DNA of 34,281 nt from Deltaproteobacteria bacterium (GTDB taxonomy: Bacteria; Desulfobacterota; Deferrimicrobia; Deferrimicrobiales; Deferrimicrobiaceae), in contig JANXPS010000049.1 of assembly GCA_025357175.1 (NCBI GenBank), positions 1-34,281 of the forward strand, written 5' to 3'. This document shows, piece after piece, positions 2,820-30,554 of this stretch. A model generated the notes under the pieces. It was not told the origin of the DNA. It worked only from the letters and a program-made list of their open reading frames with translations, and searched no databases. A program made the translations under genes and the position numbers. Position 1 is the first letter of the stretch; each line of letters opens with the position of its first letter.

Positions 2820-3637
2820 CCGCCCCCGCGCTGGCGGCGCGCGGCGTCTCGTTCCGGTACGGCGGACGCGCGGTGCTGTCGGATGTTTCGTTCGCGCTGC
2901 AGGCGGGCGAAGTCGCCATCGTGCTGGGCCCCAACGGCGCGGGGAAAAGCACGCTCCTGCGCCTGCTCTCCGGGACGCTTCGCCCGGCGTCCGGCGATGT
3001 CGCCCTGTTCGGGCGTCCGCCGGCCGACTATTCCCGCCGCGAGATGGCCCGCAACCTGTCGGTCGTGGGACAGGACCCGCCTGTCGATTTCCCCATGTCG
3101 GTCGAGGAATACGTGGCCCTCGGGCGTTTTCCGCACCTGGGGCTGTTCGGCGGGGCCTCGCCCGGCGACCGGGAAATGGTGGCGCGGGCGCTGGCGTCGG
3201 CCGGGCTGACCGATCTCGCGGAAAGACCGCTGTCGGCGCTCTCGGCCGGCGAGCGGCAGCGGGCCGCCGTCGCGAGGGCGATCGCCCAGGACGCGCGCGT
3301 GATGCTGTTCGACGAGCCGACCGCCTTTCTCGACATCCGCCACCGGGTGTTGTTCCACGAGATCGTCGAGCGGCTTGCGGAGGAGCAGGGCGTCGGCGCG
3401 CTGGTCGCGTCGCACGACCTGTCGCTTTCCGCCGAGTACGGCGATCGGATCGTGCTGCTTGCCGGCGGCCTGGTGATGGCCGACGGGAAGCCGGAAGAAG
3501 TCCTGACGCCGGAAAACGTGTTCGCGGCGTACGGAGTCGAGGTCGCCTGCGACCGCAACCCGGCGACGGGGGCGGTGCGCATCACCCCGGTCCGGCGAAG
3601 GAGGATCGGACGGGAACCGAACCGGGACCCGAAGTAA
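2816..3637 (+). CDS. btuD: Cobalamin ABC transporter ATPase
   Basis: GTGA overlap with the btuC stop; Walker A GPNGAGKST, signature LSAGERQR, Walker B MLFDEPT, H-loop SHD. Confidence 0.9.
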   Translation: MTAPALAARGVSFRYGGRAVLSDVSFALQAGEVAIVLGPNGAGKSTLLRLLSGTLRPASGDVALFGRPPADYSRREMARNLSVVGQDPPVDFPMSVEEYVALGRFPHLGLFGGASPGDREMVARALASAGLTDLAERPLSALSAGERQRAAVARAIAQDARVMLFDEPTAFLDIRHRVLFHEIVERLAEEQGVGALVASHDLSLSAEYGDRIVLLAGGLVMADGKPEEVLTPENVFAAYGVEVACDRNPATGAVRITPVRRRRIGREPNRDPK

Positions 3638-3641
3638 GAAC

Positions 3642-3812
3642 AAGGCAGGTTCCAACGAGGGCGGGAACCGGGGAAGGCCGTGGGATTCGGCCGCTGCCCC
3701 GCAACCGTAAAGGGAACGAAACCCGCAGAAGTGCCACTGGGGAATCTCTCGGGAAGGCGCGGGGAGTAGGCAGTCGTCATGACGCCCGAAGCCGGAAGAT
3801 CCGGACCGCCCC
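3642..3812 (+). promoter_or_regulatory. Cobalamin riboswitch 2 (inside the operon)
   Basis: GGGAAGGCCGTGGGATTCGGCC, GCTGCCCCGCAACCGTAA (3693-3710), GCCACTGG..GGGAAGGC and the box GCCGGAAGATCCGGACC. Lies upstream of btuB. Confidence 0.92.
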
Positions 3813-3846
3813 ATTTCAACCCCCTTTCGAGGGCAAAGGAGGATTC

Positions 3847-20450: not shown

Positions 20451-23400
20451 TTACTTGAGAACGAAGTCCACCCGGCTGTCTCTCACTTTATCTTTCTTCG
20501 CCGGCGCGAGCGTTTTCGGCTCGACGGTAAAGACCCGGCCCGCCTCGACCTGCTTCGTCGCCACCAGATAATCGATCGCCCGCTTCGCGCGCTCTTGCGC
20601 CAACTGCCGCAGGTCGTCGTCGGTGACCTCGACGTGCGTCAGGATCAGCTTCTCCATCTCGGGCACGGGCAGCTCCTTCTGCAACCCGATCAGATTTCTC
20701 GGCTTGGAAAACGTCTCGGCCGAATACGCTTTGAGCAGGTATTTCGGATATTCGGCGGGGAGCACGGTCACGTTGTCGGGCGATTGCTGCCCGCCACCCT
20801 GCTTCGCCACATCCTTGATCTTCTGCGCCCGGATCTTCCGTTCGAATGCCGCCGTTCTCAGGGCATCGCGATCGGCCGGCGGATCGGCGTGCCCGACGAC
20901 GTCGAGCTTGAGCGCGGGTCTTTCGCCAAGCGCCTTTGCGAGCGATTTCAGCTTGCTCTCGCCCGCCCCGTCCAGCACGGTCTGCCCCGCCGGAAACTCG
21001 AGGTAGCTCAACTCCTCCCCGTTGCCCATCAGCGCGCCGAGCAGCGCGAAGGGGGAGGTCGCCGCCTTGACGAGCAGGTTCTTGACGATCTGCCAGACGA
21101 CCCCCCAGACGTTGAATTTCGGGTCGTCGAGATTTCCCGTGACGGGCAGGTCGAGACGGATCTCGCCGTTCCTGTCTTTTAGAAGCGCCACCGCGAGGCG
21201 GACGGGCAGCTTCGTGGCGTCGGGGCTCTCGATCTTGTCCCCGAAGTCGAACTGGTTGATGAAGACGCTGTTTCCGGCGTCGAGCTTCTTCTTGACGATC
21301 AGGTATTTCAATCCGAGCGACAGTTTCCCCTTTTCGATCGAATAGCCGGCGTAGCGCCCCGAGTAGGGCGTCATGGGGCTCAGGTCGATGTCCTTGAAAT
21401 CGACCTTGAGGTCCACGAACAGGTCGTCGCGCAACGGGTTGATCCGTCCCGTGATTTCGAGCGGGGCCTGGCTGTCCAGTCGACCGCGAAGAAGGACGTC
21501 GGCCATCTTCGTCTCTTCGGAGGACAGGCCGGACACCCGGCCGCCCACCTCTTTCAGCTTCGCCGTGTAATTGGGGTGGACGTGCCGGTCCGTGAACAGG
21601 ATCGTGCCGCCCTGGAGCGTCACCGTATCGATTGCGACAGGCGTCGGCCCGGAGGATGGGGGAGGCTGGGTGGCGGGCACCGAGGGCGTACCGGCCGCGG
21701 AGGCTCCGCTGTTGTCGGTCCCGGCCGCGCCGGGCTCCTTCCGGACGATCCCCTGGACGTTCAGCGACCCGTCTTCATTGACCACGATCCGCGAATAGAG
21801 CCCGGAAAGCGAGAGGTCCCGGATCGCCACCGACATGGGGTTGACGCCGATCTTCATCCCGGCGAGGTGGAGCGCCTCCCACTTGAGGAAGTCCTCGCTC
21901 GTCTCCTTGTCGACCATGGAGAGACCTCGAAGCGATGTTTCCCCCTCCCAGGATGCTTTCATCGGTTCGCCTGCGGGCATCGAGAGCGAGAGATTCCCGT
22001 TGGCGTCGACCAGTCCGCCGGTCATGTCGATGCTGAGTTTTTCGGTGAAGTAGGGCTGCAGCGGCACGAGGTCGATTCCCTTCACGCTGACCGCCAGGTT
22101 GGCCATGGAAGGAGCGATGCCGACCGTCCCGCTCACGGCGGCCGTGCCGGAGCCGTTGAGCGTCATCCGCCCCGAGGCCTTTCCGTGGACGTTTTTCGCG
22201 GTCGAAAGGTTTGCGGCGGTGATGTCGAGCGGCGCCACCTTCAGAAGAACGGCTTCCTCCGGCTGCTGGTCGTCCCACGTGACGTCCCAGCGATCGAGCG
22301 CCAGCCTGCCGAGCACAACCTGCCAGGCCGCCGGTTCGACCGACTTGCCGCGCACGGCGTCCTTCGATGCCGGCGCTTTCGAATCGGCCGGGGGCGGGGG
22401 GGGCGTCAGCCCGGCCAGGTTGACCTTCCCGTCCTCGCCCCGCTCGATCCGCAGTTCGCCGCGGCTCCCGGCGATGGATCCGACCCGGACCGATCTCCGC
22501 CCGAGATCGACGACGCCATCCTTCATCTCGATCCGCGGAATCCGGAGGAAATCGGAATCGCTTCCGCGCCGCCGCAGCTTGAGCGCCGCCAGCGCCACGG
22601 ACAGGTTGTCGACGGCCGTGACGGCATTGTCGCCGACGGGGCGGTACGCATACCGGGCCGACAGGTCGAGCAGCCCCTCGCGCACGTCGAACAGCACGGA
22701 CTTCGAATAGTAGGGGGAGTATTTCCCGAGCGAGACCCGGGCGATCCGGAGCTCGCCGCGGGCGTCGAGCGGCGAAAGCGCGAGCAGCCCGTCGTGCCGC
22801 ACCGTCTCGCCTGATTCCGTGGCGAGCGCCAGTTCGAGGCGGAACGGCTTTCCGGGCGCGTTGGTGAAGTCGCTGACATCGAGCGTGATGGGGGCGAGCG
22901 TGGTCCGGAACGGCTTCCCCTCGACCGCCGCGTCGGCAAAGATGATCTTTCCGCCGGTCAGCCGTATCGACGTCGCTCCGACGAGCGGCGGCGCAGTTTC
23001 GTTCTTCGGCTTCGGGGGCTTGTCCGCAGACGGCCCGGGATTTTGCCCGTCGCCGCCGGGGAGCAGGGAGAGCAGCGTCAGCCGCCCTTCCCGGTCGCGC
23101 GAAAGGTTCAGCTCGGGCGAGGTCATCAGGATGCCGCCGAACTTGACGCGGAGCGGATCCGGCGACGCGGATTCAAGCGGAATGTCGAGACGCGGAACGG
23201 ATAGTACGGGGAGGTCCCCCCGGTCGGTGATCCGGAAATCCTTCAGCGCCAGGGCTCCCGACAAGACGACCGTGGGCGGGGCGTTTTTCTTCCGGGTGAA
23301 GAACAGGGTCGCCTTCACGTCGATTGCCCCGGACGGCACCTTGAACTTGAGCGGCACCGGCGAATATTCGAGGTAATACGGCAGGTCGAAGTCACGGATG

Positions 23401-24083
23401 TCCATCGCGAAGGATGTTTCACGGGCGTCGCTGAATGGCCGCGTCCTGCCCGTGAGCGCGACCGGCCTTCCGTTGACGTCGGCCGAGAAGGCGGGCTGCA
23501 CGTAACTGTCGACGTAATACGGGAGGTTGGACAGGAAGGGCACCGACAGTGCGATGTGCCGCACCGCGTGGCGCGTCTTCTTCGGCCGGTCGTCGAAATC
23601 GAAGGCGCCGTCGATGATCCGGATGTTGTTGAAGGAGAACCGGAGCGGTTTCGAGTCGGGCGGCGACGGTTTGCCCGTGAATTCGTCCACGAGGTCGGAG
23701 AAGTTGTAGCGGCCGTCGGCTTTCCGGACGACGGTGATTCGCGGCGAGCGCAACGTGATCTCGCGCAGCACGGGGCCGCGGTGCCAGGCCGAGGCCAGCT
23801 GGGCGTCCACGAACAGTTCCTCGAACGAGAGGAACTCCCCGCCCGTCTCCCGGTCGGCGACGGCGAGTCCCCGCAGGGAGATCGACAGCGTGAACGGGTT
23901 GATCCGCACCTCGCGCAAGGTCGTCTTGCGGTGGAGCGCCCGGGTCGCCTGCTTCTCGACGACCGACCGGACGATCGGCGGCAGCGCCAGGAACCCGACG
24001 ATGGCCACCAGCGCGATCGCGGATGCGAGGCCGATCAGCGCCTTCCGAACGGCCGGTTTCCCCGCAAGCTCGACACCGTACAT
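20451..24083 (-). CDS. DUF748-repeat envelope protein
   Basis: N-terminal TM anchor, INPFTLS, repeated beta-rich units, PYSGRYAGYSIEKGKL, LAVALLKDRNGEIRLDLPVTG, KAATSPFALL. GGAGGG SD. Confidence 0.85.
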   Translation of the reverse strand: MYGVELAGKPAVRKALIGLASAIALVAIVGFLALPPIVRSVVEKQATRALHRKTTLREVRINPFTLSISLRGLAVADRETGGEFLSFEELFVDAQLASAWHRGPVLREITLRSPRITVVRKADGRYNFSDLVDEFTGKPSPPDSKPLRFSFNNIRIIDGAFDFDDRPKKTRHAVRHIALSVPFLSNLPYYVDSYVQPAFSADVNGRPVALTGRTRPFSDARETSFAMDIRDFDLPYYLEYSPVPLKFKVPSGAIDVKATLFFTRKKNAPPTVVLSGALALKDFRITDRGDLPVLSVPRLDIPLESASPDPLRVKFGGILMTSPELNLSRDREGRLTLLSLLPGGDGQNPGPSADKPPKPKNETAPPLVGATSIRLTGGKIIFADAAVEGKPFRTTLAPITLDVSDFTNAPGKPFRLELALATESGETVRHDGLLALSPLDARGELRIARVSLGKYSPYYSKSVLFDVREGLLDLSARYAYRPVGDNAVTAVDNLSVALAALKLRRRGSDSDFLRIPRIEMKDGVVDLGRRSVRVGSIAGSRGELRIERGEDGKVNLAGLTPPPPPADSKAPASKDAVRGKSVEPAAWQVVLGRLALDRWDVTWDDQQPEEAVLLKVAPLDITAANLSTAKNVHGKASGRMTLNGSGTAAVSGTVGIAPSMANLAVSVKGIDLVPLQPYFTEKLSIDMTGGLVDANGNLSLSMPAGEPMKASWEGETSLRGLSMVDKETSEDFLKWEALHLAGMKIGVNPMSVAIRDLSLSGLYSRIVVNEDGSLNVQGIVRKEPGAAGTDNSGASAAGTPSVPATQPPPSSGPTPVAIDTVTLQGGTILFTDRHVHPNYTAKLKEVGGRVSGLSSEETKMADVLLRGRLDSQAPLEITGRINPLRDDLFVDLKVDFKDIDLSPMTPYSGRYAGYSIEKGKLSLGLKYLIVKKKLDAGNSVFINQFDFGDKIESPDATKLPVRLAVALLKDRNGEIRLDLPVTGNLDDPKFNVWGVVWQIVKNLLVKAATSPFALLGALMGNGEELSYLEFPAGQTVLDGAGESKLKSLAKALGERPALKLDVVGHADPPADRDALRTAAFERKIRAQKIKDVAKQGGGQQSPDNVTVLPAEYPKYLLKAYSAETFSKPRNLIGLQKELPVPEMEKLILTHVEVTDDDLRQLAQERAKRAIDYLVATKQVEAGRVFTVEPKTLAPAKKDKVRDSRVDFVLK

Positions 24084-24170: not shown

Positions 24171-24791
24171 ATGAGAGCGGAACGGTTCACCACGATCATC
24201 ATCTTGTTATTTCTGGCGGCTTCGGTCGTTTCAGCGGGGGACAAGCCAATGTCCGCGACAGGGGGAAAGACGGAGACGGCGACGTTCGCCGGCGGCTGCT
24301 TCTGGTGCATGGAGCCGCCGTACGACAAGTTGCCGGGCGTGCTGAAGACGACAGTCGGGTACACCGGCGGTCACAAGACCAATCCGACCTACGAGGAGGT
24401 GTCGGCCGGGGGAACGGGACACGCCGAGTCGATCGAGATCGTGTTCGATCCGTCGAAGGTCACTTACGGAAATCTGCTCGAGATTTTCTGGCGCAATATC
24501 GACCCGCTGGTCAAGGACCGGCAGTTCTGCGACGTGGGTTCGCAGTACCGCACGGCGATCTTTTTCCACGACGAGGCGCAGCGCATGGCGGCCGATGCGT
24601 CGAAGGCGGCGATCGAGAAGACGAAAGGGTGGAAGGTGGCCACGCAGATCGTGGCGGCGACGCCGTTCTATCCCGCCGAGGAATACCACCAGGACTATCA
24701 CGACAAGAATCCGGTCCGGTACAAGTTCTACCGTTTCAACTGCGGACGCGACCAACGGCTCGACGAACTCTGGGGCAAGGCGGCGAAATAG
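24171..24791 (+). CDS. msrA: Peptide methionine sulfoxide reductase MsrA with a signal peptide
   Basis: FAGGCFWCME, GYTGG, FYPAEEYHQDY; hydrophobic N-terminus. Confidence 0.95.
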   Translation: MRAERFTTIIILLFLAASVVSAGDKPMSATGGKTETATFAGGCFWCMEPPYDKLPGVLKTTVGYTGGHKTNPTYEEVSAGGTGHAESIEIVFDPSKVTYGNLLEIFWRNIDPLVKDRQFCDVGSQYRTAIFFHDEAQRMAADASKAAIEKTKGWKVATQIVAATPFYPAEEYHQDYHDKNPVRYKFYRFNCGRDQRLDELWGKAAK

Positions 24792-24792
24792 G

Positions 24793-25395
24793 ATGGGAGC
24801 CCCATCCGATTCCGCCTCCTTTCCGGTGAGCGTGCCGGAGCGTCCCTGGAAGCCGACAAAGGAGCAACTCGCGGAAGCGGGATCGACCGGCTCGGTGCCC
24901 GACGTCATCGGGAAGGGGCTCGCGGTCCTCTTCGTCGGGATCAACCCCGGGCTGTACTCGGGGGCGATCCGACATCATTTCGGCAGGCCGGGCAACCGCT
25001 TCTGGCCCGCGCTCCGGGACTCCGGATTCACGCCCCGCCTGCTGTCACCCTTCGATGAGCGTGAACTGCTCACGTTCGGCCTCGGCATCACCAACCTCGC
25101 CGGGCGGACGACCGCGACCGCGGCGGAACTGACCGCCGACGAACTGGTCGAGGGCGCACGGGCGCTTGCCGAAAAGGTGAAGCGCTACCGCCCCGGTTTT
25201 GTCGCCTTCCTCGGCATCACCTCCTATCGGGCGGCGTTCAATCGGCCGAAGGCGGTTCTGGGGCGGCAAACGGAGCCGTTCTCGGGCGTGCGGGCCTGGG
25301 TCCTGCCCAATCCGAGCGGCCTGAACGCCCACCACCAGGCGCCCGGCCTCGCAAGGATGTTCCGGGAGCTGCGCGCGGCGGTGAATTTCGCTTGA
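24793..25395 (+). CDS. mug: G/U mismatch-specific DNA glycosylase (start 24793 or GTG 24826)
   Basis: LFVGINPGLYS, HHF..PGNRFW, WVLPNPSGLNAH. Confidence 0.92.
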   Translation: MGAPSDSASFPVSVPERPWKPTKEQLAEAGSTGSVPDVIGKGLAVLFVGINPGLYSGAIRHHFGRPGNRFWPALRDSGFTPRLLSPFDERELLTFGLGITNLAGRTTATAAELTADELVEGARALAEKVKRYRPGFVAFLGITSYRAAFNRPKAVLGRQTEPFSGVRAWVLPNPSGLNAHHQAPGLARMFRELRAAVNFA

Positions 25396-25421
25396 CAAAC
25401 GCCGTTAGATACTCGTACTCT
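25392..25421 (+). promoter_or_regulatory. Putative sigma70 promoter of the leuA leader
   Basis: TTGACA (25392-25397, overlapping the mug stop), an 18-nt spacer, then TACTCT (25416-25421). Confidence 0.6.
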
Positions 25422-25431
25422 GTGTGACATC

Positions 25432-25515
25432 ATGAAGACGAACACCGCGCGCATCGCTGTCGTTGGAAGCCTCGCTCTAGCAGGGCTGCCCGGAGGCCGG
25501 TCCACCGCCGCGTGA
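25432..25515 (+). CDS. leuA leader peptide, 27 aa (MKTNTARIAVVGSLALAGLPGGRSTAA)
   Basis: Ile-x-Val-Val, then Leu codons CTC, CTA and CTG; followed by antiterminator and terminator hairpins upstream of leuA. Confidence 0.8.
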   Translation: MKTNTARIAVVGSLALAGLPGGRSTAA

Positions 25516-25548
25516 GCGTAAGTCTTATTTTCTAAAAAACCGCTACGG

Positions 25549-25583
25549 GCCGCGGAACCGGCAAAGGTTCCCGCGGCTTTTTT
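25549..25583 (+). terminator. Attenuator terminator T1
   Basis: GCCGCGGAACC-GGCAAA-GGTTCCCGCGGC-TTTTTT. Confidence 0.85.
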
Positions 25584-25590
25584 GTTTTTC

Positions 25591-25628
25591 AAAAGCCGCC
25601 GGGGATCGCCTCCCGGCGGCTTTTTTTT
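25591..25628 (+). terminator. Second tandem terminator T2 upstream of leuA
   Basis: AAAAGCCGCCGGGG..TCCCGGCGGC-TTTTTTTT. Confidence 0.8.
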
Positions 25629-25664
25629 AATGCTTCGAGAGACGAAAATAAGGAGGAACGGATC

Positions 25665-27242
25665 ATGGCTGAAAAGGTATTCATTTTCGACACGACGTTG
25701 CGTGACGGAGAACAGGTTCCCGGCGCAAAGCTCGCCAAGGAGCAGAAGGTGGAGATCGCCAAGCAGATCGCGGCACTCGGCGTCGACATCATCGAGGCGG
25801 GCTTCCCGGCGTCGTCCCCGGGCGACTTCGACTCGGTCCAGACGGTGGCGCGCGAGGTCAAGGGACCGATCATCACGGGCCTCGCCCGTGCCGTGAAAAA
25901 GGACATCGACGCGTTATGGGCGGCGGTCAAGGTCGCGAAGCGTCCGCGCATCCACACGTTCATCGGCACCTCCGACATCCACATCCAGAAGAAGTTCAAG
26001 TCCGACAAGGACAAGATCCTCCAGTGGGCGGTCGATACGGTGAAGTACGCCAAGTCGCTCTGCAACGACATTGAGTTCTCGACGGAAGACGCGGCCAGGA
26101 CCGATTTCGAGTTCCTCTGCCGCTCGGTCGAGGCGCTGGTCAAGGCTGGCGCGACGACGATCAACGTGCCCGATACGGTGGGCTACGCGATGCCGGGCGA
26201 GATGGCCGACCGGATACGCCGTCTCAAGGAAAAGGTGCCTGCGCTCGACAAGGCGATCATCTCGATGCACTGCCACAACGACATGGGACTCGCGACCGCC
26301 AACACGCTGGCCGGCGTCCTCGCGGGGGCGCGGCAGGCCGAGGTGACGATGAACGGCATCGGCGAGCGCGCGGGCAACGCGGCGCTCGAAGAGGTCGTCA
26401 TGGCGATCCGCACCCGGAAGGACATCTTCAAGGGACTCTACACCGACGTCAACACGAAGGAAATTTCCAAGACGAGCAAGATGGTGTCGACGCTCATGGG
26501 CCTGCCCATCCAGCGCAACAAGGCGATCGTCGGCGTCAATGCGTTCGCCCACTCGTCGGGCATCCACCAGGACGGCATCCTCAAGGATCGTTCGACCTAT
26601 GAAATCGTCCGGCCGGAGGATGTCGGCGTTTCCGCCCACGCATTCACGCTGACCGCAAGGTCCGGCCGCGCCGCGCTCAAGCACCAGATTTCCGCATTCG
26701 GCCACAAGGTCACCGATCCGCAGCTCGACGCGATCTACGAGCAGTTCCTCACGCTGGCCGACAAGAAGAAGGAAGTGGCGATCGAGGATCTCGAGGCGCT
26801 CGTGCAGGAAGAACTCTTCAAGGTGCCCGAGATTTTCAAGCTCGAGCACATCCAGTTCCTCTCGGGCACGAAGGCGACGCCGATGGCGGCGCTCCGGATC
26901 CGCAAGGGAAAGGATGTCATCGAGGAGGCGGCGACCGGCAACGGTCCCGTCGACGCAGCCTACCAGTGCGTCGAGAAGATCGTCGGCCGGAAGTTCACGC
27001 TGATCGACTGGGGACTCAACGCGATCACCTCCGGCGAGGACGCGATCGGCGAGGCGCGGGTGCGCATCCGCTTCAAGGACACGATCGTCTCCGGTACGGC
27101 TACGTCAACCGACGTCATCGAGGCGTCGGTCAAGGCGTACCTCGCGGCGATCAACCGCTACATCGCATCCGAAGAGCGCGACAAGGCTGCGAAAAAGGTG
27201 AAGGGCGCGCCCAAGAAAAAGACGGCGAAGCCGTCGCTTTAA
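25665..27242 (+). CDS. leuA: 2-isopropylmalate synthase
   Basis: [34 protein letters not shown], regulatory domain [16 protein letters not shown]. Confidence 0.93.
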
Positions 27243-27267: not shown

Positions 27268-28536
27268 TCAGCGGGTTCCGGCGTCGGGCAGCACGTAACC
27301 CGCGTCGGGCAGGATCAGCGGAGGCGGCAGCTCACCCAGTGCCGCCTCCGCTTTTTTTAGCGCATCCGGCAGCGATGCGGCCGGCGCCATTCCCATCCGC
27401 TCGACGTCTTCGGGCCGGAGCGACGAGACCAGGATCACGCGGCAGCCGAGCGCCTTGCCGAGCGTGGCGTGCGCGGTCTGGCCGTAGATCTGGTACCGCT
27501 CCCGCAGTTCCAGTTCCATCAGTTCGGGATCTTCGAAACGGAACCACGGGAAGAAGTGGGGGCTGCCGAACCCGTCCGCACATTCCGCGAGCAGGATCAG
27601 GACGCCGCCCGGCGTCACGGCGCGGAAGGCGTTGTCGAGCGCCTTGTGCGACTGGATCAGGTTGATGTCCTTGGGCCAACCACCGGCGGATGCGATGACG
27701 AAGGGGTAGCGGTGCGGCAGGGAAACGCGAAATACGGCCGCATACCGTTCACACGCCTCGCGGTGCGCCGACAACCAGTCGCCGGCGACGGCGTCGAACA
27801 GCTTCTTGCCGGGCGTCAGCAGCGTGTTGAGCAGGAAGGCGGGAGAAGCCATCGCGACCGCCTCGCGGATGTCCTCGTGCACCGGATTGCCGTCGAGCTG
27901 CCCGGCGCGCGCCAGCGGATGCTTCCCGGGCCCGTCGGGCAGGAAGACGCGGAAGTGGGTATCGGCGGCCGTGTCGCGGTGGGCGCAGCCGGGCACGAGC
28001 GCCTTGCGCCCCCCTCCGAATCCGGCGAAATAGTGAAACGAGATGGTACCGGTCAGCACGATCCGGTCGTGTTCCATGACGGGAAGGCAGACCCGCACCC
28101 GGGTCCCGCGCGTGGTCGTGCCGAGCGTCGCCATGGCGCCGTCGGGGTCCGACTGCACGACGCGGATGCCCGAGGAAAGTTCGCTTCCCACGATCGCGGC
28201 GATCTCGGCGTCGGTCTGCGCCCGGTGCGTTCCGCGCGCGATGAACAAGGTCACGCGATCGCGGGGCACGCCTGCCGCGTCGGTTTCGGCGAGCAGCGGC
28301 GCCAGGAATATCTCGGTCGCGCTGTAGCGGGTGATGTCGGAAATCGGGATCGCCACGGAGTCGGAGGGGCCGAGCAATGCCCGAAGCGGGGGAGAATCCA
28401 CCGGGTTCGCAAGCCGGTCGCGGAGCATCCCGGCTTCATCGGCCGGAAGCGCGACGGCGCGCGCGGCGACCACCGATGAACGCGCGGCGAGGCCGGAGGG
28501 CAGCTCCGCCGTCCCGCGGCCGTATTTCAGCTTCAT
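27268..28536 (-). CDS. larA: LarA-family nickel-pincer-dependent racemase/epimerase
   Basis: MKLKYG, SDITR, GTHR, HYFAGFGGGRKALVPG, GGWPKDINLIQSHKA, LILLAECADG. Confidence 0.85.
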   Translation of the reverse strand: MKLKYGRGTAELPSGLAARSSVVAARAVALPADEAGMLRDRLANPVDSPPLRALLGPSDSVAIPISDITRYSATEIFLAPLLAETDAAGVPRDRVTLFIARGTHRAQTDAEIAAIVGSELSSGIRVVQSDPDGAMATLGTTTRGTRVRVCLPVMEHDRIVLTGTISFHYFAGFGGGRKALVPGCAHRDTAADTHFRVFLPDGPGKHPLARAGQLDGNPVHEDIREAVAMASPAFLLNTLLTPGKKLFDAVAGDWLSAHREACERYAAVFRVSLPHRYPFVIASAGGWPKDINLIQSHKALDNAFRAVTPGGVLILLAECADGFGSPHFFPWFRFEDPELMELELRERYQIYGQTAHATLGKALGCRVILVSSLRPEDVERMGMAPAASLPDALKKAEAALGELPPPLILPDAGYVLPDAGTR

Positions 28537-28634
28537 GCGCCGGGGCCGCCCGGTTTCCCGAACGTCGGGTCTTTTCGCGGTGTGGTCATCGCGCCAGTGT
28601 GATGGAAACAGGCGAGGGGAGTCAACCGGATCTG

Positions 28635-28663
28635 TTGCCGCCATCACCGGCGCCCAGTAGAAT
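28635..28663 (+). promoter_or_regulatory. Putative sigma70 promoter of suhB
   Basis: TTGCCG, a 17-nt spacer, then TAGAAT. A divergent TTGACT at 28620-28625 on the minus strand may serve larA. Confidence 0.55.
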
Positions 28664-30183: not shown

Positions 30184-30275
30184 TGGCGGAGAGGGAGAGA
30201 TTCGAACTCTCGGAACCCTTTTGAGATTCACACGATTTCCAGTCGTGTTCCTTCGGCCAGCTCGGACACCTCTCC
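30184..30275 (-). tRNA. tRNA-Ser(GGA)
   Basis: GGAGAGG..CACGA-CTGGAAA-TCGTG, long variable arm, GTTCGAATC, CCTCTCCGCCA. Confidence 0.96.
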
Positions 30276-30342
30276 GCTTGAAAAACCGTCTGATCAAAGA
30301 TCAAGTCTTGATGAATGCCACCTTCCCCTTGCAGGGAAAAAG

Positions 30343-30435
<93 letters not shown>

Positions 30436-30466
30436 GCATTTCGGGGGTCCGTCAGGAAAGACTACC

Positions 30467-30554
30467 TGGCGGAGGGAGCAGGATTTGAACCTGCGGAGCA
30501 TCGCTGCTCAACGGTTTTCAAGACCGCCGCCATCAGCCGCTCGGCCATCCCTCC
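30467..30554 (-). tRNA. tRNA-Ser(TGA)
   Basis: GCGGT-CTTGAAA-ACCGT anticodon arm, long variable arm, encoded CCA. Confidence 0.95.

Follow-up and report, generated by a model that had tools for sequence, protein, structure and literature searches.

How could one stalled ribosome release two intrinsic terminators that lie one behind the other ahead of a biosynthetic gene? This question is raised by the leader of leuA, the 2-isopropylmalate synthase gene, on contig JANXPS010000049.1 (assembly GCA_025357175.1) of a Deltaproteobacteria bacterium from the family Deferrimicrobiaceae; the whole stretch that was analysed, 34,281 nucleotides (nt) of the forward strand, is hereafter called the window. 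An earlier reading of this DNA from its letters alone (the sequence-only reading) had proposed that a leader peptide and two tandem terminators, T1 and T2, are wired as a relay, in which one stalling event disables both terminators. Our computational analysis points in the same direction: leuA is probably controlled by a leader-peptide attenuator whose terminator is present in two tandem copies, wired as a six-segment chain by an antiterminator (AT) and a second alternative helix, here called the relay helix (R). In silico, the proposed coupling is backed by a relay helix that is conserved and covaries across about 40 leaders.

Two terminator hairpins and two competing helices upstream of leuA

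The gene encodes a true 2-isopropylmalate synthase, as shown by its matches to NF002086 (729.8 bits; cut-off 532) and TIGR00973 (682.9 bits; cut-off 598.7), and it is monocistronic, because the next gene, a larA-like open reading frame (ORF; 27268-28647), lies convergently on the minus strand. A 270-nt region separates leuA from the preceding mug-like glycosylase ORF, which ends at 25395. Both of the U-tailed hairpins that had been placed between the leader peptide and leuA were recovered in this region, so that one leader holds two adjacent intrinsic terminators together with one sensing ORF. T1 folds with -22.8 kcal/mol (z -3.49) and is followed by the tail UUUUUUGUUUUU, and T2 folds with -26.3 kcal/mol (z -4.84); for either hairpin, 0 of 200 shuffles were as stable. 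A simple terminator scan detected T2 and missed T1 owing to the bulge in its stem. Over the 34-kb window, the scan found one further hairpin of comparable strength (29542-29516, minus strand); with one other similar hairpin per 34 kb, the presence of T1 and T2 within 80 nt is not a matter of chance.

Simpler accounts of these hairpins were considered and rejected. A generic stem shared by the local terminators does not explain them, as the other strong terminator of the window has an unrelated stem. Nor is T2 an opposite-strand terminator, given that both flanking genes lie on the plus strand and that its reverse complement is then followed by only four U. A role of T2 as the terminator of the upstream gene was also dismissed, as this gene is not conserved among relatives.

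T2 lies only 36 nt ahead of the leuA start, and the Shine-Dalgarno sequence of leuA begins 22 nt beyond the U8 tail. No promoter-like site was found between T2 and leuA by a consensus promoter scan, which is a blunt tool that also omits the conserved leader promoter, whose TACTCT element agrees with the consensus at 3 of 6 positions. A second ORF or sensor between T1, T2 and leuA is likewise absent from the window, in which there is no room for one.

The minimum-free-energy (MFE) fold of the transcript prior to the T1 3' arm is the antiterminator (-28.0 kcal/mol), in agreement with the claim that an upstream strand captures the T1 5' arm. The antiterminator 5' strand starts 10-25 nt after the Leu codons, which is a placement suited to masking by a ribosome. 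The claimed pairing between the T1 3' arm and the T2 5' arm proved to be longer than the 12 base pairs (bp) first described: it comprises 16 bp, and the extra four reach into the T2 loop, whose bases are dispensable for T2 itself. The resulting relay hairpin folds with -21.9 kcal/mol (z -3.90; 0 of 200 shuffles as stable) and is mutually exclusive with both T1 and T2. When successive prefixes of the transcript were folded with the footprint of a stalled ribosome masked, the optimum ran from the antiterminator to T1, then to the antiterminator plus R, and finally to T1 plus T2. At the T1 decision point, the antiterminator state has -28.0 kcal/mol, vs -32.7 kcal/mol for the T1 state.

A further element of the sequence-only reading, a protector hairpin (25483-25503) overlapping the last Leu codon, had to be given up. 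It appears in no MFE fold, and its positions are paired in 57.6% of cases vs 51.4% in the control slid by +1, with 0 compensatory pairs in 35 leaders. No well-supported anti-antiterminator was found in the leader. By eye, the Leu codons could be paired with the stop-codon region through CGCUC/GAGCG; this pairing would break where the Ala codon is GCC. The coordinates of all elements are collected in Table 1.

Table 1. Positions of the attenuator elements and of leuA in the window
Feature	Position	Strand	Details
Putative leader promoter	25392..25421	+	TTGACA 25392-25397, 18-nt spacer, TACTCT 25416-25421; start site predicted
Leader peptide ORF	25432..25515	+	27 amino acids, MKTNTARIAVVGSLALAGLPGGRSTAA; stop codon UGA 25513-25515
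AT 5' strand (segment 2)	25496..25518	+	Last leader-ORF codons; spans the stop codon
AT 3' strand (segment 3)	25541..25562	+	T1 5' arm and part of the T1 loop
Terminator T1	25547..25590	+	Stem 25547-25579, 13 pairs, one bulged C, loop GGCAAA; U-rich tail to 25589
Relay hairpin R	25566..25607	+	25566-25581 (T1 3' arm) with 25591-25607 (T2 5' arm and loop), 16 bp, one bulge
Terminator T2	25591..25632	+	Stem 25591-25624, 14 pairs, loop AUCGCC; U8 25621-25628
leuA unit	25650..27242	+	Shine-Dalgarno AAGGAGG 25650-25656; coding sequence 25665-27242, 525 amino acids

The leader stays with leuA in related genomes

A LeuA search with one genome per species returned 80 loci, 46 of which carry a LeuA 66-96% identical to that of the window; in some of these 46, the leader region is truncated by contig ends. 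In 35 further loci, whose LeuA is 77-96% identical, leuA is directly preceded by the same layout of promoter, ORF, antiterminator, T1 and T2, and the doublet leader recurs in about 40 Deferrimicrobia-type genomes. With a covariance model of T1 and T2, 37 relatives scored 60-88 bits, while the loci L030, L022 and L012 scored 38-44 bits. In L012 and L030, two more distant loci of Deferrimicrobia type whose LeuA is 67% identical, the leader sequence differs, but the Leu-rich ORF and the same four helices are kept; R is predicted at -18.3 kcal/mol in L012 and at -26.3 kcal/mol in L030, where the antiterminator consists of 13 perfect bp. The upstream gene varies among these loci, being mug-like in the window and in L001 and a different ORF of about 206 amino acids in most others. 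Since the leader is constant while the upstream gene varies, the hairpins belong to leuA and not to the preceding gene.

The leader ORF is short and enriched in Leu codons, as expected of a leader-peptide attenuator: the window has three of them (CUC 25471-73, CUA 25477-79 and CUG 25486-88), and relatives have up to seven. An ATG-started ORF with a ..GLALL.. core is present in 36/36 leaders and is 27-29 amino acids long in 31 of them, and indels inside it are multiples of 3 among the aligned relatives. The CTA codon is invariant in all 35 aligned leaders; in eight long ORFs of the window, CTA accounts for 6.6% of the Leu codons. The RNA of the leader ORF folds no better than shuffles (z +0.82), and a spacer of about 30 nt, rich in A and U, separates the ORF from T1.

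The leader ATG lies 10 nt past the putative -10 element, with no Shine-Dalgarno sequence ahead of it, and the sensing ORF would be translated from a leaderless or near-leaderless mRNA. TTGACA was found at the same distance in 34 of 36 leaders, the other two being truncated by the contig end. The spacing between ATG and -10 element is kept in Deferrimicrobiaceae-type relatives, while L030 and the Desulfobacterales-type leaders have GAGGA before the ATG.

These data also bear on whether translation is sensed at all. The hairpins might instead end the transcription of the upstream gene or answer a protein or small RNA, with leuA driven otherwise, and a transcription start placed by prediction, the leader ATG without a Shine-Dalgarno sequence and the absence of any Rfam family at gathering score in the leader can be cited in its favor. 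We regard this explanation as very improbable, given that promoter, ORF and hairpins stay with leuA while the upstream gene varies, that the reading frame of the ORF is preserved, its indels being multiples of 3, that this ORF holds an invariant rare Leu codon, that TTGACA keeps its fixed distance in 34/36 leaders, and that sister lineages show obvious Leu-run leader peptides at the same place.

The terminators and the relay helix covary

Covariation was examined on two alignments, namely A2, a structure-blind MAFFT alignment of 37 T1-T2 regions, and A5, in which 40 hits were realigned to a covariance model of the T1+T2 structure only and which thus leans toward the structure that competes with R. 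On A2, R is 89.4% paired vs 35-62% in six slid controls, and 5 of its 13 pairs (14 cells) changed on both sides; its covariation score of 0.198 was reached by 0 of 500 shuffles. On A5, R is 90.2% paired vs 43-59% in the slid controls, with both-sided changes at 5/13 pairs (16 cells) and a score of 0.214, again reached by 0 of 500 shuffles. A conserved helix between the T1 3' arm and the T2 5' arm, the feature that distinguishes a coupled tandem attenuator, is therefore present and beats all slid controls.

The terminators themselves behave similarly. T1 and T2 together are 91.5% paired on A2 (6/24 pairs changed on both sides; score 0.205) and 94.2% paired on A5 (11/23 pairs; score 0.263). The cells of the T1 helix are 96-97% paired over 36-39 distinct leaders, and one stem pair of T2 appears as CG and as GC in 18 of 39 distinct sequences each. 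Intrinsic terminators conserved with covariation thus stand between the ORF and the gene. The terminators T1 and T2 and the relay helix appear to be backed by comparative evidence of about equal quality.

The part of R that extends beyond the T2 stem is particularly informative. Where letters are present on both sides, three R pairs using T2 loop positions are paired in 36/37, 33/37 and 37/39 cells. L041, L052 and L054 carry A in place of G in the T1 3' arm and, matching it, U in place of C in the T2 loop; this gives an A-U pair in R, whereas the corresponding T1 pair is lost. For 34 of 35 leaders, folding predicts an R-type hairpin, with energies from -12.0 to -30.0 kcal/mol.

The antiterminator is conserved as well: its consensus helices are 96.5% paired in 35 leaders vs 27-45% in slid controls, and in the MFE fold of the pre-T1 transcript, 10-13 of the 15-16 nt of the T1 5' arm pair with the ORF-terminal segment in all 35 leaders. 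Covariation among orthologous leaders, the check proposed with the sequence-only reading, is thus present for T1, T2 and the relay helix and absent for the antiterminator.

A proposed six-segment chain with one sensor

We propose the following mechanism, on the premises that the ORF is translated, that transcription starts at the putative promoter, that polymerase really terminates at both sites and that the helices fold in the kinetic order of their synthesis. With leucine plentiful, the ribosome would reach the stop codon and cover the antiterminator 5' strand, upon which T1 would form and terminate. In this off state, T1 would lock its own 3' arm, leaving T2 free to fold and to stop those polymerases that have passed T1. 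With leucyl-tRNA scarce, the ribosome would stall at the Leu codons (25471-25488, including the invariant rare CUA), and the antiterminator 5' strand would pair with the T1 5' arm. Deprived of its own partner, the T1 3' arm would then pair with the T2 5' arm and loop once these have been made. The T2 5' arm would emerge about 10 nt later, and R could close ahead of the synthesis of the T2 3' arm; the latter would be left without a partner, and polymerase would enter leuA.

The placement of the ribosome fits this scheme when textbook footprint sizes are used. A ribosome with CUC or CUA in its A site would cover the RNA up to about 25483-25490 and leave the antiterminator strand (from 25496) free, while one positioned at the stop codon would hide the greater part of the antiterminator 5' strand.

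The T2 3' arm contains CCUCC (25610-25614), which is complementary to GGAGG (25652-25656) of the leuA Shine-Dalgarno sequence, as spotted by eye. An unpaired T2 3' arm in the read-through fold could transiently mask the leuA ribosome-binding site.

Weighing the coupled terminators against other explanations

A number of observations weigh against this mechanism, and the first group concerns energetics. For an RNA so rich in GC, the antiterminator energy is unexceptional in the window (z -1.53; 17 of 200 shuffled sequences reached it). At the T2 decision point, which is also the full length, the optimum is T1 plus T2 at -58.1 kcal/mol, vs -51.3 kcal/mol for the antiterminator plus R and -53.1 kcal/mol for the antiterminator plus T2. 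Since T1 plus T2 is the full-length thermodynamic optimum, the "on" state rests wholly on the folding order. T2 also outdoes R in stability in 24 of 34 leaders. The barriers bear on this point, with the weakness that they come from a heuristic direct-path method (findpath): they amount to 15.0 kcal/mol from the antiterminator to T1, 14.6 kcal/mol from antiterminator plus R to antiterminator plus T2, and 18.4 kcal/mol from antiterminator plus R to T1 plus T2. In this model, the second "on" helix (R) is guarded about as well as the first (the antiterminator), and by order-of-magnitude reasoning, polymerase would pass this region in a fraction of a second, far too briefly for barriers of about 15 kcal/mol to be crossed.

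The second group concerns the sensor and its antiterminator. The window peptide has just 3 Leu codons, none of them adjacent. Compensatory pairs in the antiterminator number 0 in 35 leaders, the helix being invariant; as it never varies on both sides, covariation neither adds nor removes support for it.

The third group concerns the terminator tails, which are imperfect in some relatives. The T1 tail is U-rich throughout, with 5 or more U among its 8 nt in each of the 33 leaders whose T1 folded as a separate hairpin; these counts cover 33/37 leaders, T1 and T2 having merged into one hairpin in the other four, and the T2 tail counts are approximate. The T1 tails of one clade start with G and are interrupted, and only 4-5 of 8 nt are U in the T2 tails of L007, L008 and L035. 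In L014, T1 stands alone with a U9 tail, T2 having been lost while the leader was kept. As a side observation, the MFE fold of the T1-T2 segment in L054, L055, L057 and L002 is a single long hairpin, closed around R by pairing between the T1 5' arm and the T2 3' arm; this predicted fold is a possible third conformation, still ending in the T2 U tract.

Taken by itself, the interrupted tail of that one clade would suit a chain with a single real terminator, as in the his leader, in which T1 is a non-terminating relay hairpin (like C:D), T2 the sole attenuator and R its antiterminator (like D:E). Such a chain would have exactly the topology of the his leader, in which E:F is the terminator and the read-through fold consists of B:C and D:E (PMC4046918), and a sub-threshold match to the Rfam His_leader model spans 25502-25628. 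The T1 of the window, on the other hand, has all the sequence features of an intrinsic terminator, namely a 13-pair GC-rich stem and then UUUUUUGUUUUU, and the count of U residues after T1 given above holds in every separately folded leader. L014, with T1 alone and its U9 tail, and the sister lineages, whose single predicted terminator sits in the equivalent position, also speak against it. We therefore hold a single-terminator chain to be quite unlikely.

The fourth group concerns R. One central R pair is broken in 22/36 (A2) or 21/39 (A5) distinct sequences, and the underlying G-to-C switch in the T2 5' arm is compensated inside T2, not in T1. The complementarity of R could in part be a relic of duplication. 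Carried to its end, this thought gives an explanation in which only T1 is regulated, T2 is a leaky back-up or insulator or a stabilizer of the mRNA 5' end, and the complementarity is a functionless leftover. Since T2 resembles a diverged copy of T1, the complementarity would come free. Besides the unmaintained central pair and the T2 tails that are degenerate in a few relatives, it can point to swapped T1 and T2 partners that nearly match the own ones (-20.4 vs -21.6 kcal/mol). The small advantage of the own partners, for its part, counts in favor of R: 1 of 10,000 permutations was as low, by a statistic that ignores phylogeny. Such a leftover would, however, hardly stay 89-90% paired with compensatory changes over lineages whose LeuA is just 67-80% identical, and the T2 loop bases, from which T2 gains nothing, have been preserved in their complementarity to the T1 3' arm. 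Moreover, a 14-bp terminator with a U8 tail lying 36 nt before an essential gene, with no promoter in between, needs an off switch, and R is the only candidate encoded there. Regulation through T1 alone is accordingly judged unlikely, and two coupled terminators remain the reading that we favor.

Sister lineages and the origin of the doublet

The leuA leaders of Desulfobacterales- and Syntrophobacterales-type loci (L015-L034 and L067-L080; LeuA 54-61% identical to that of the window) resemble the window leader in having a Leu-rich peptide (e.g., MRLLLLGLLLLLGLL...), an antiterminator and a GC-rich terminator. They differ in having one terminator, as was seen in 16/16 loci inspected and in most of the 33 distant loci scanned, where the doublet counts are lower bounds because the hairpin scan missed the T2 of L022. 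This fits the statement of the sequence-only reading that classical leu attenuators use one terminator. L022, of Desulfobacterales type, is the exception: its terminator is followed directly by a diverged copy, with R at -17.7 kcal/mol (z -2.6) and T2 at -20.4 kcal/mol.

Judging from these sequences, the doublet likely originated by tandem duplication of a terminator, and it seems to have arisen at least twice, in the Deferrimicrobia-type leaders and in L022. A copy of the T1 5' arm can, by its very origin, pair with the T1 3' arm, so that duplicating a regulated terminator yields a "self-wired" pair. If this is true, the tandem duplication of any regulated terminator wires itself, which would explain why the doublet arose at least twice.

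A more tentative idea, which we would not count as likely, is that the doublet acts as a time filter, so that only stalls outlasting the transcription of both terminators give read-through. The antiterminator 5' strand lies in the ORF, and a ribosome that resumes translation would remove the antiterminator before polymerase has left the stretch of roughly 47 nt between the U tracts. After a brief pause, T1 would thus re-form, R would dissolve and T2 would fire. If true, this would amount to a kinetic proofreading of leucine starvation.

In the loci L015-L034 and L067-L080, as well as in L030, a further small ORF, equipped with a strong Shine-Dalgarno sequence (GGAGGTG..ATGGG; its peptide starts MGL..), lies between the terminator and leuA. 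It is conserved across the Desulfobacterales- and Syntrophobacterales-type loci and absent from the window.

Repeats were noticed in the same region of other relatives. In L014, an inverted repeat of about 100 nt (GGGACGGTCCTGAGT ... ACTCAGGACCGTCCC; about 2800-2920) stands in place of T2, and it also occurs before leuA in L003 (1-90). Another inverted repeat, GGGGGACACTC...GAGTGTCCCCC, of about 40-70 nt, lies between T2 and the leuA ribosome-binding site in many relatives (L007, L008, L011, L039, L041, L043, L048, L050, L052, L054, L058, L061 and L062, with two copies in L062) and is absent from the window; its sequence suggests a small hairpin element that is repeated or mobile.

Other features of the window

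The mug-like ORF upstream of the leader (24595-25395, plus strand) matches the G/U mismatch-specific DNA glycosylase model from residue 101 on, with 143.2 bits (cut-off 144); either its true start lies further downstream or it carries an N-terminal extension. Its stop codon overlaps the -35 hexamer of the leader promoter. Elsewhere, the window contains two cobalamin riboswitch aptamers (RF00174) on the plus strand (494-755, 74.4 bits; 3630-3823, 68.3 bits), three consecutive tRNA-Ser genes on the minus strand (30184-30554; anticodons GGA, GCT and TGA) and a minus-strand ORF of 1210 amino acids (20451-24083) with only weak sub-threshold matches (TIGR03545, a GspN-like model).

Significance and comparison with known systems

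If the coupling holds, one sensor controls two serial terminators via a domino of alternative helices. Multiplying the read-through fractions of both would then give the leak of the off state, and induction would not suffer. The entire lineage Candidatus Deferrimicrobiota, most of it uncultured, has retained the element. The duplication of a terminator offers a simple evolutionary route to such an arrangement and might supply a compact part for synthetic regulators, and the loop of T2 illustrates that a terminator loop can be under constraint from partners beyond its own hairpin. The view of attenuation as a whole stays the same.

To our knowledge, the amino-acid attenuators described so far use one terminator. 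In the full-text literature, with subscription journals mostly outside the scope of that search, no report of an amino-acid attenuator with coupled terminators, or of leuA attenuation built in this way in Deltaproteobacteria, came up. Rfam offers no closer model: the 27 sub-threshold matches with E up to 10 are mostly hairpin-plus-U-tail sRNA models, neither Leu_leader (RF00512) nor the T-box is found at gathering score or among these matches, and the His_leader (RF00514) match reaches 24.9 bits vs a gathering score of 49, so that the resemblance to the his leader is topological only.

The leader shares with the classical trp, leu, thr and ilv attenuators of enterobacteria an ORF with cognate codons, a competing antiterminator, an intrinsic terminator and, in its sensing stretch, the rare CUA codon, which is important in the enterobacterial leu leader. 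Unlike in these classical attenuators, two terminators are joined here by a second alternative helix; and unlike in classical leu leaders, the Leu codons are interspersed (L-A-L-x-G-L) and form no run, and the leader ORF probably has no 5' untranslated region.

Other leaders share single traits with this one. The actinobacterial LEU element also has a leader ORF with Leu codons upstream of leuA; it differs from the present leader in being a pseudoknot of the Leu codons with the leuA Shine-Dalgarno sequence (PMC1262725) and in lacking the present terminator layout. Some gammaproteobacterial rimP leaders carry a second tandem terminator (PMC2965389); these leaders and the zipper-type attenuator of pLS20 (PMC13401043) are different designs. 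A possible precedent is the ermK leader of Bacillus licheniformis, a ribosome-stall attenuator with two adjacent Rho-independent terminators in the description given by a paper that cites Kwak et al. 1991 for it (PMC4335068). By that description, ermK is likewise a two-terminator, ribosome-dependent attenuator; unlike here, the stall is drug-induced and the gene encodes a resistance methylase, and the two leaders have no sequence relation.

The closest counterpart in topology is the his leader of Salmonella and E. coli, in which, as outlined in the part of PMC4046918 that treats it, a stalled ribosome allows B:C to form, which forces D:E and prevents the E:F terminator. In the leuA leader, the antiterminator corresponds to B:C, R to D:E and T2 to E:F. 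Unlike in the his leader, the middle hairpin (T1, corresponding to C:D) is a canonical U-tailed terminator, and the amino acid that would be sensed is Leu, not His.

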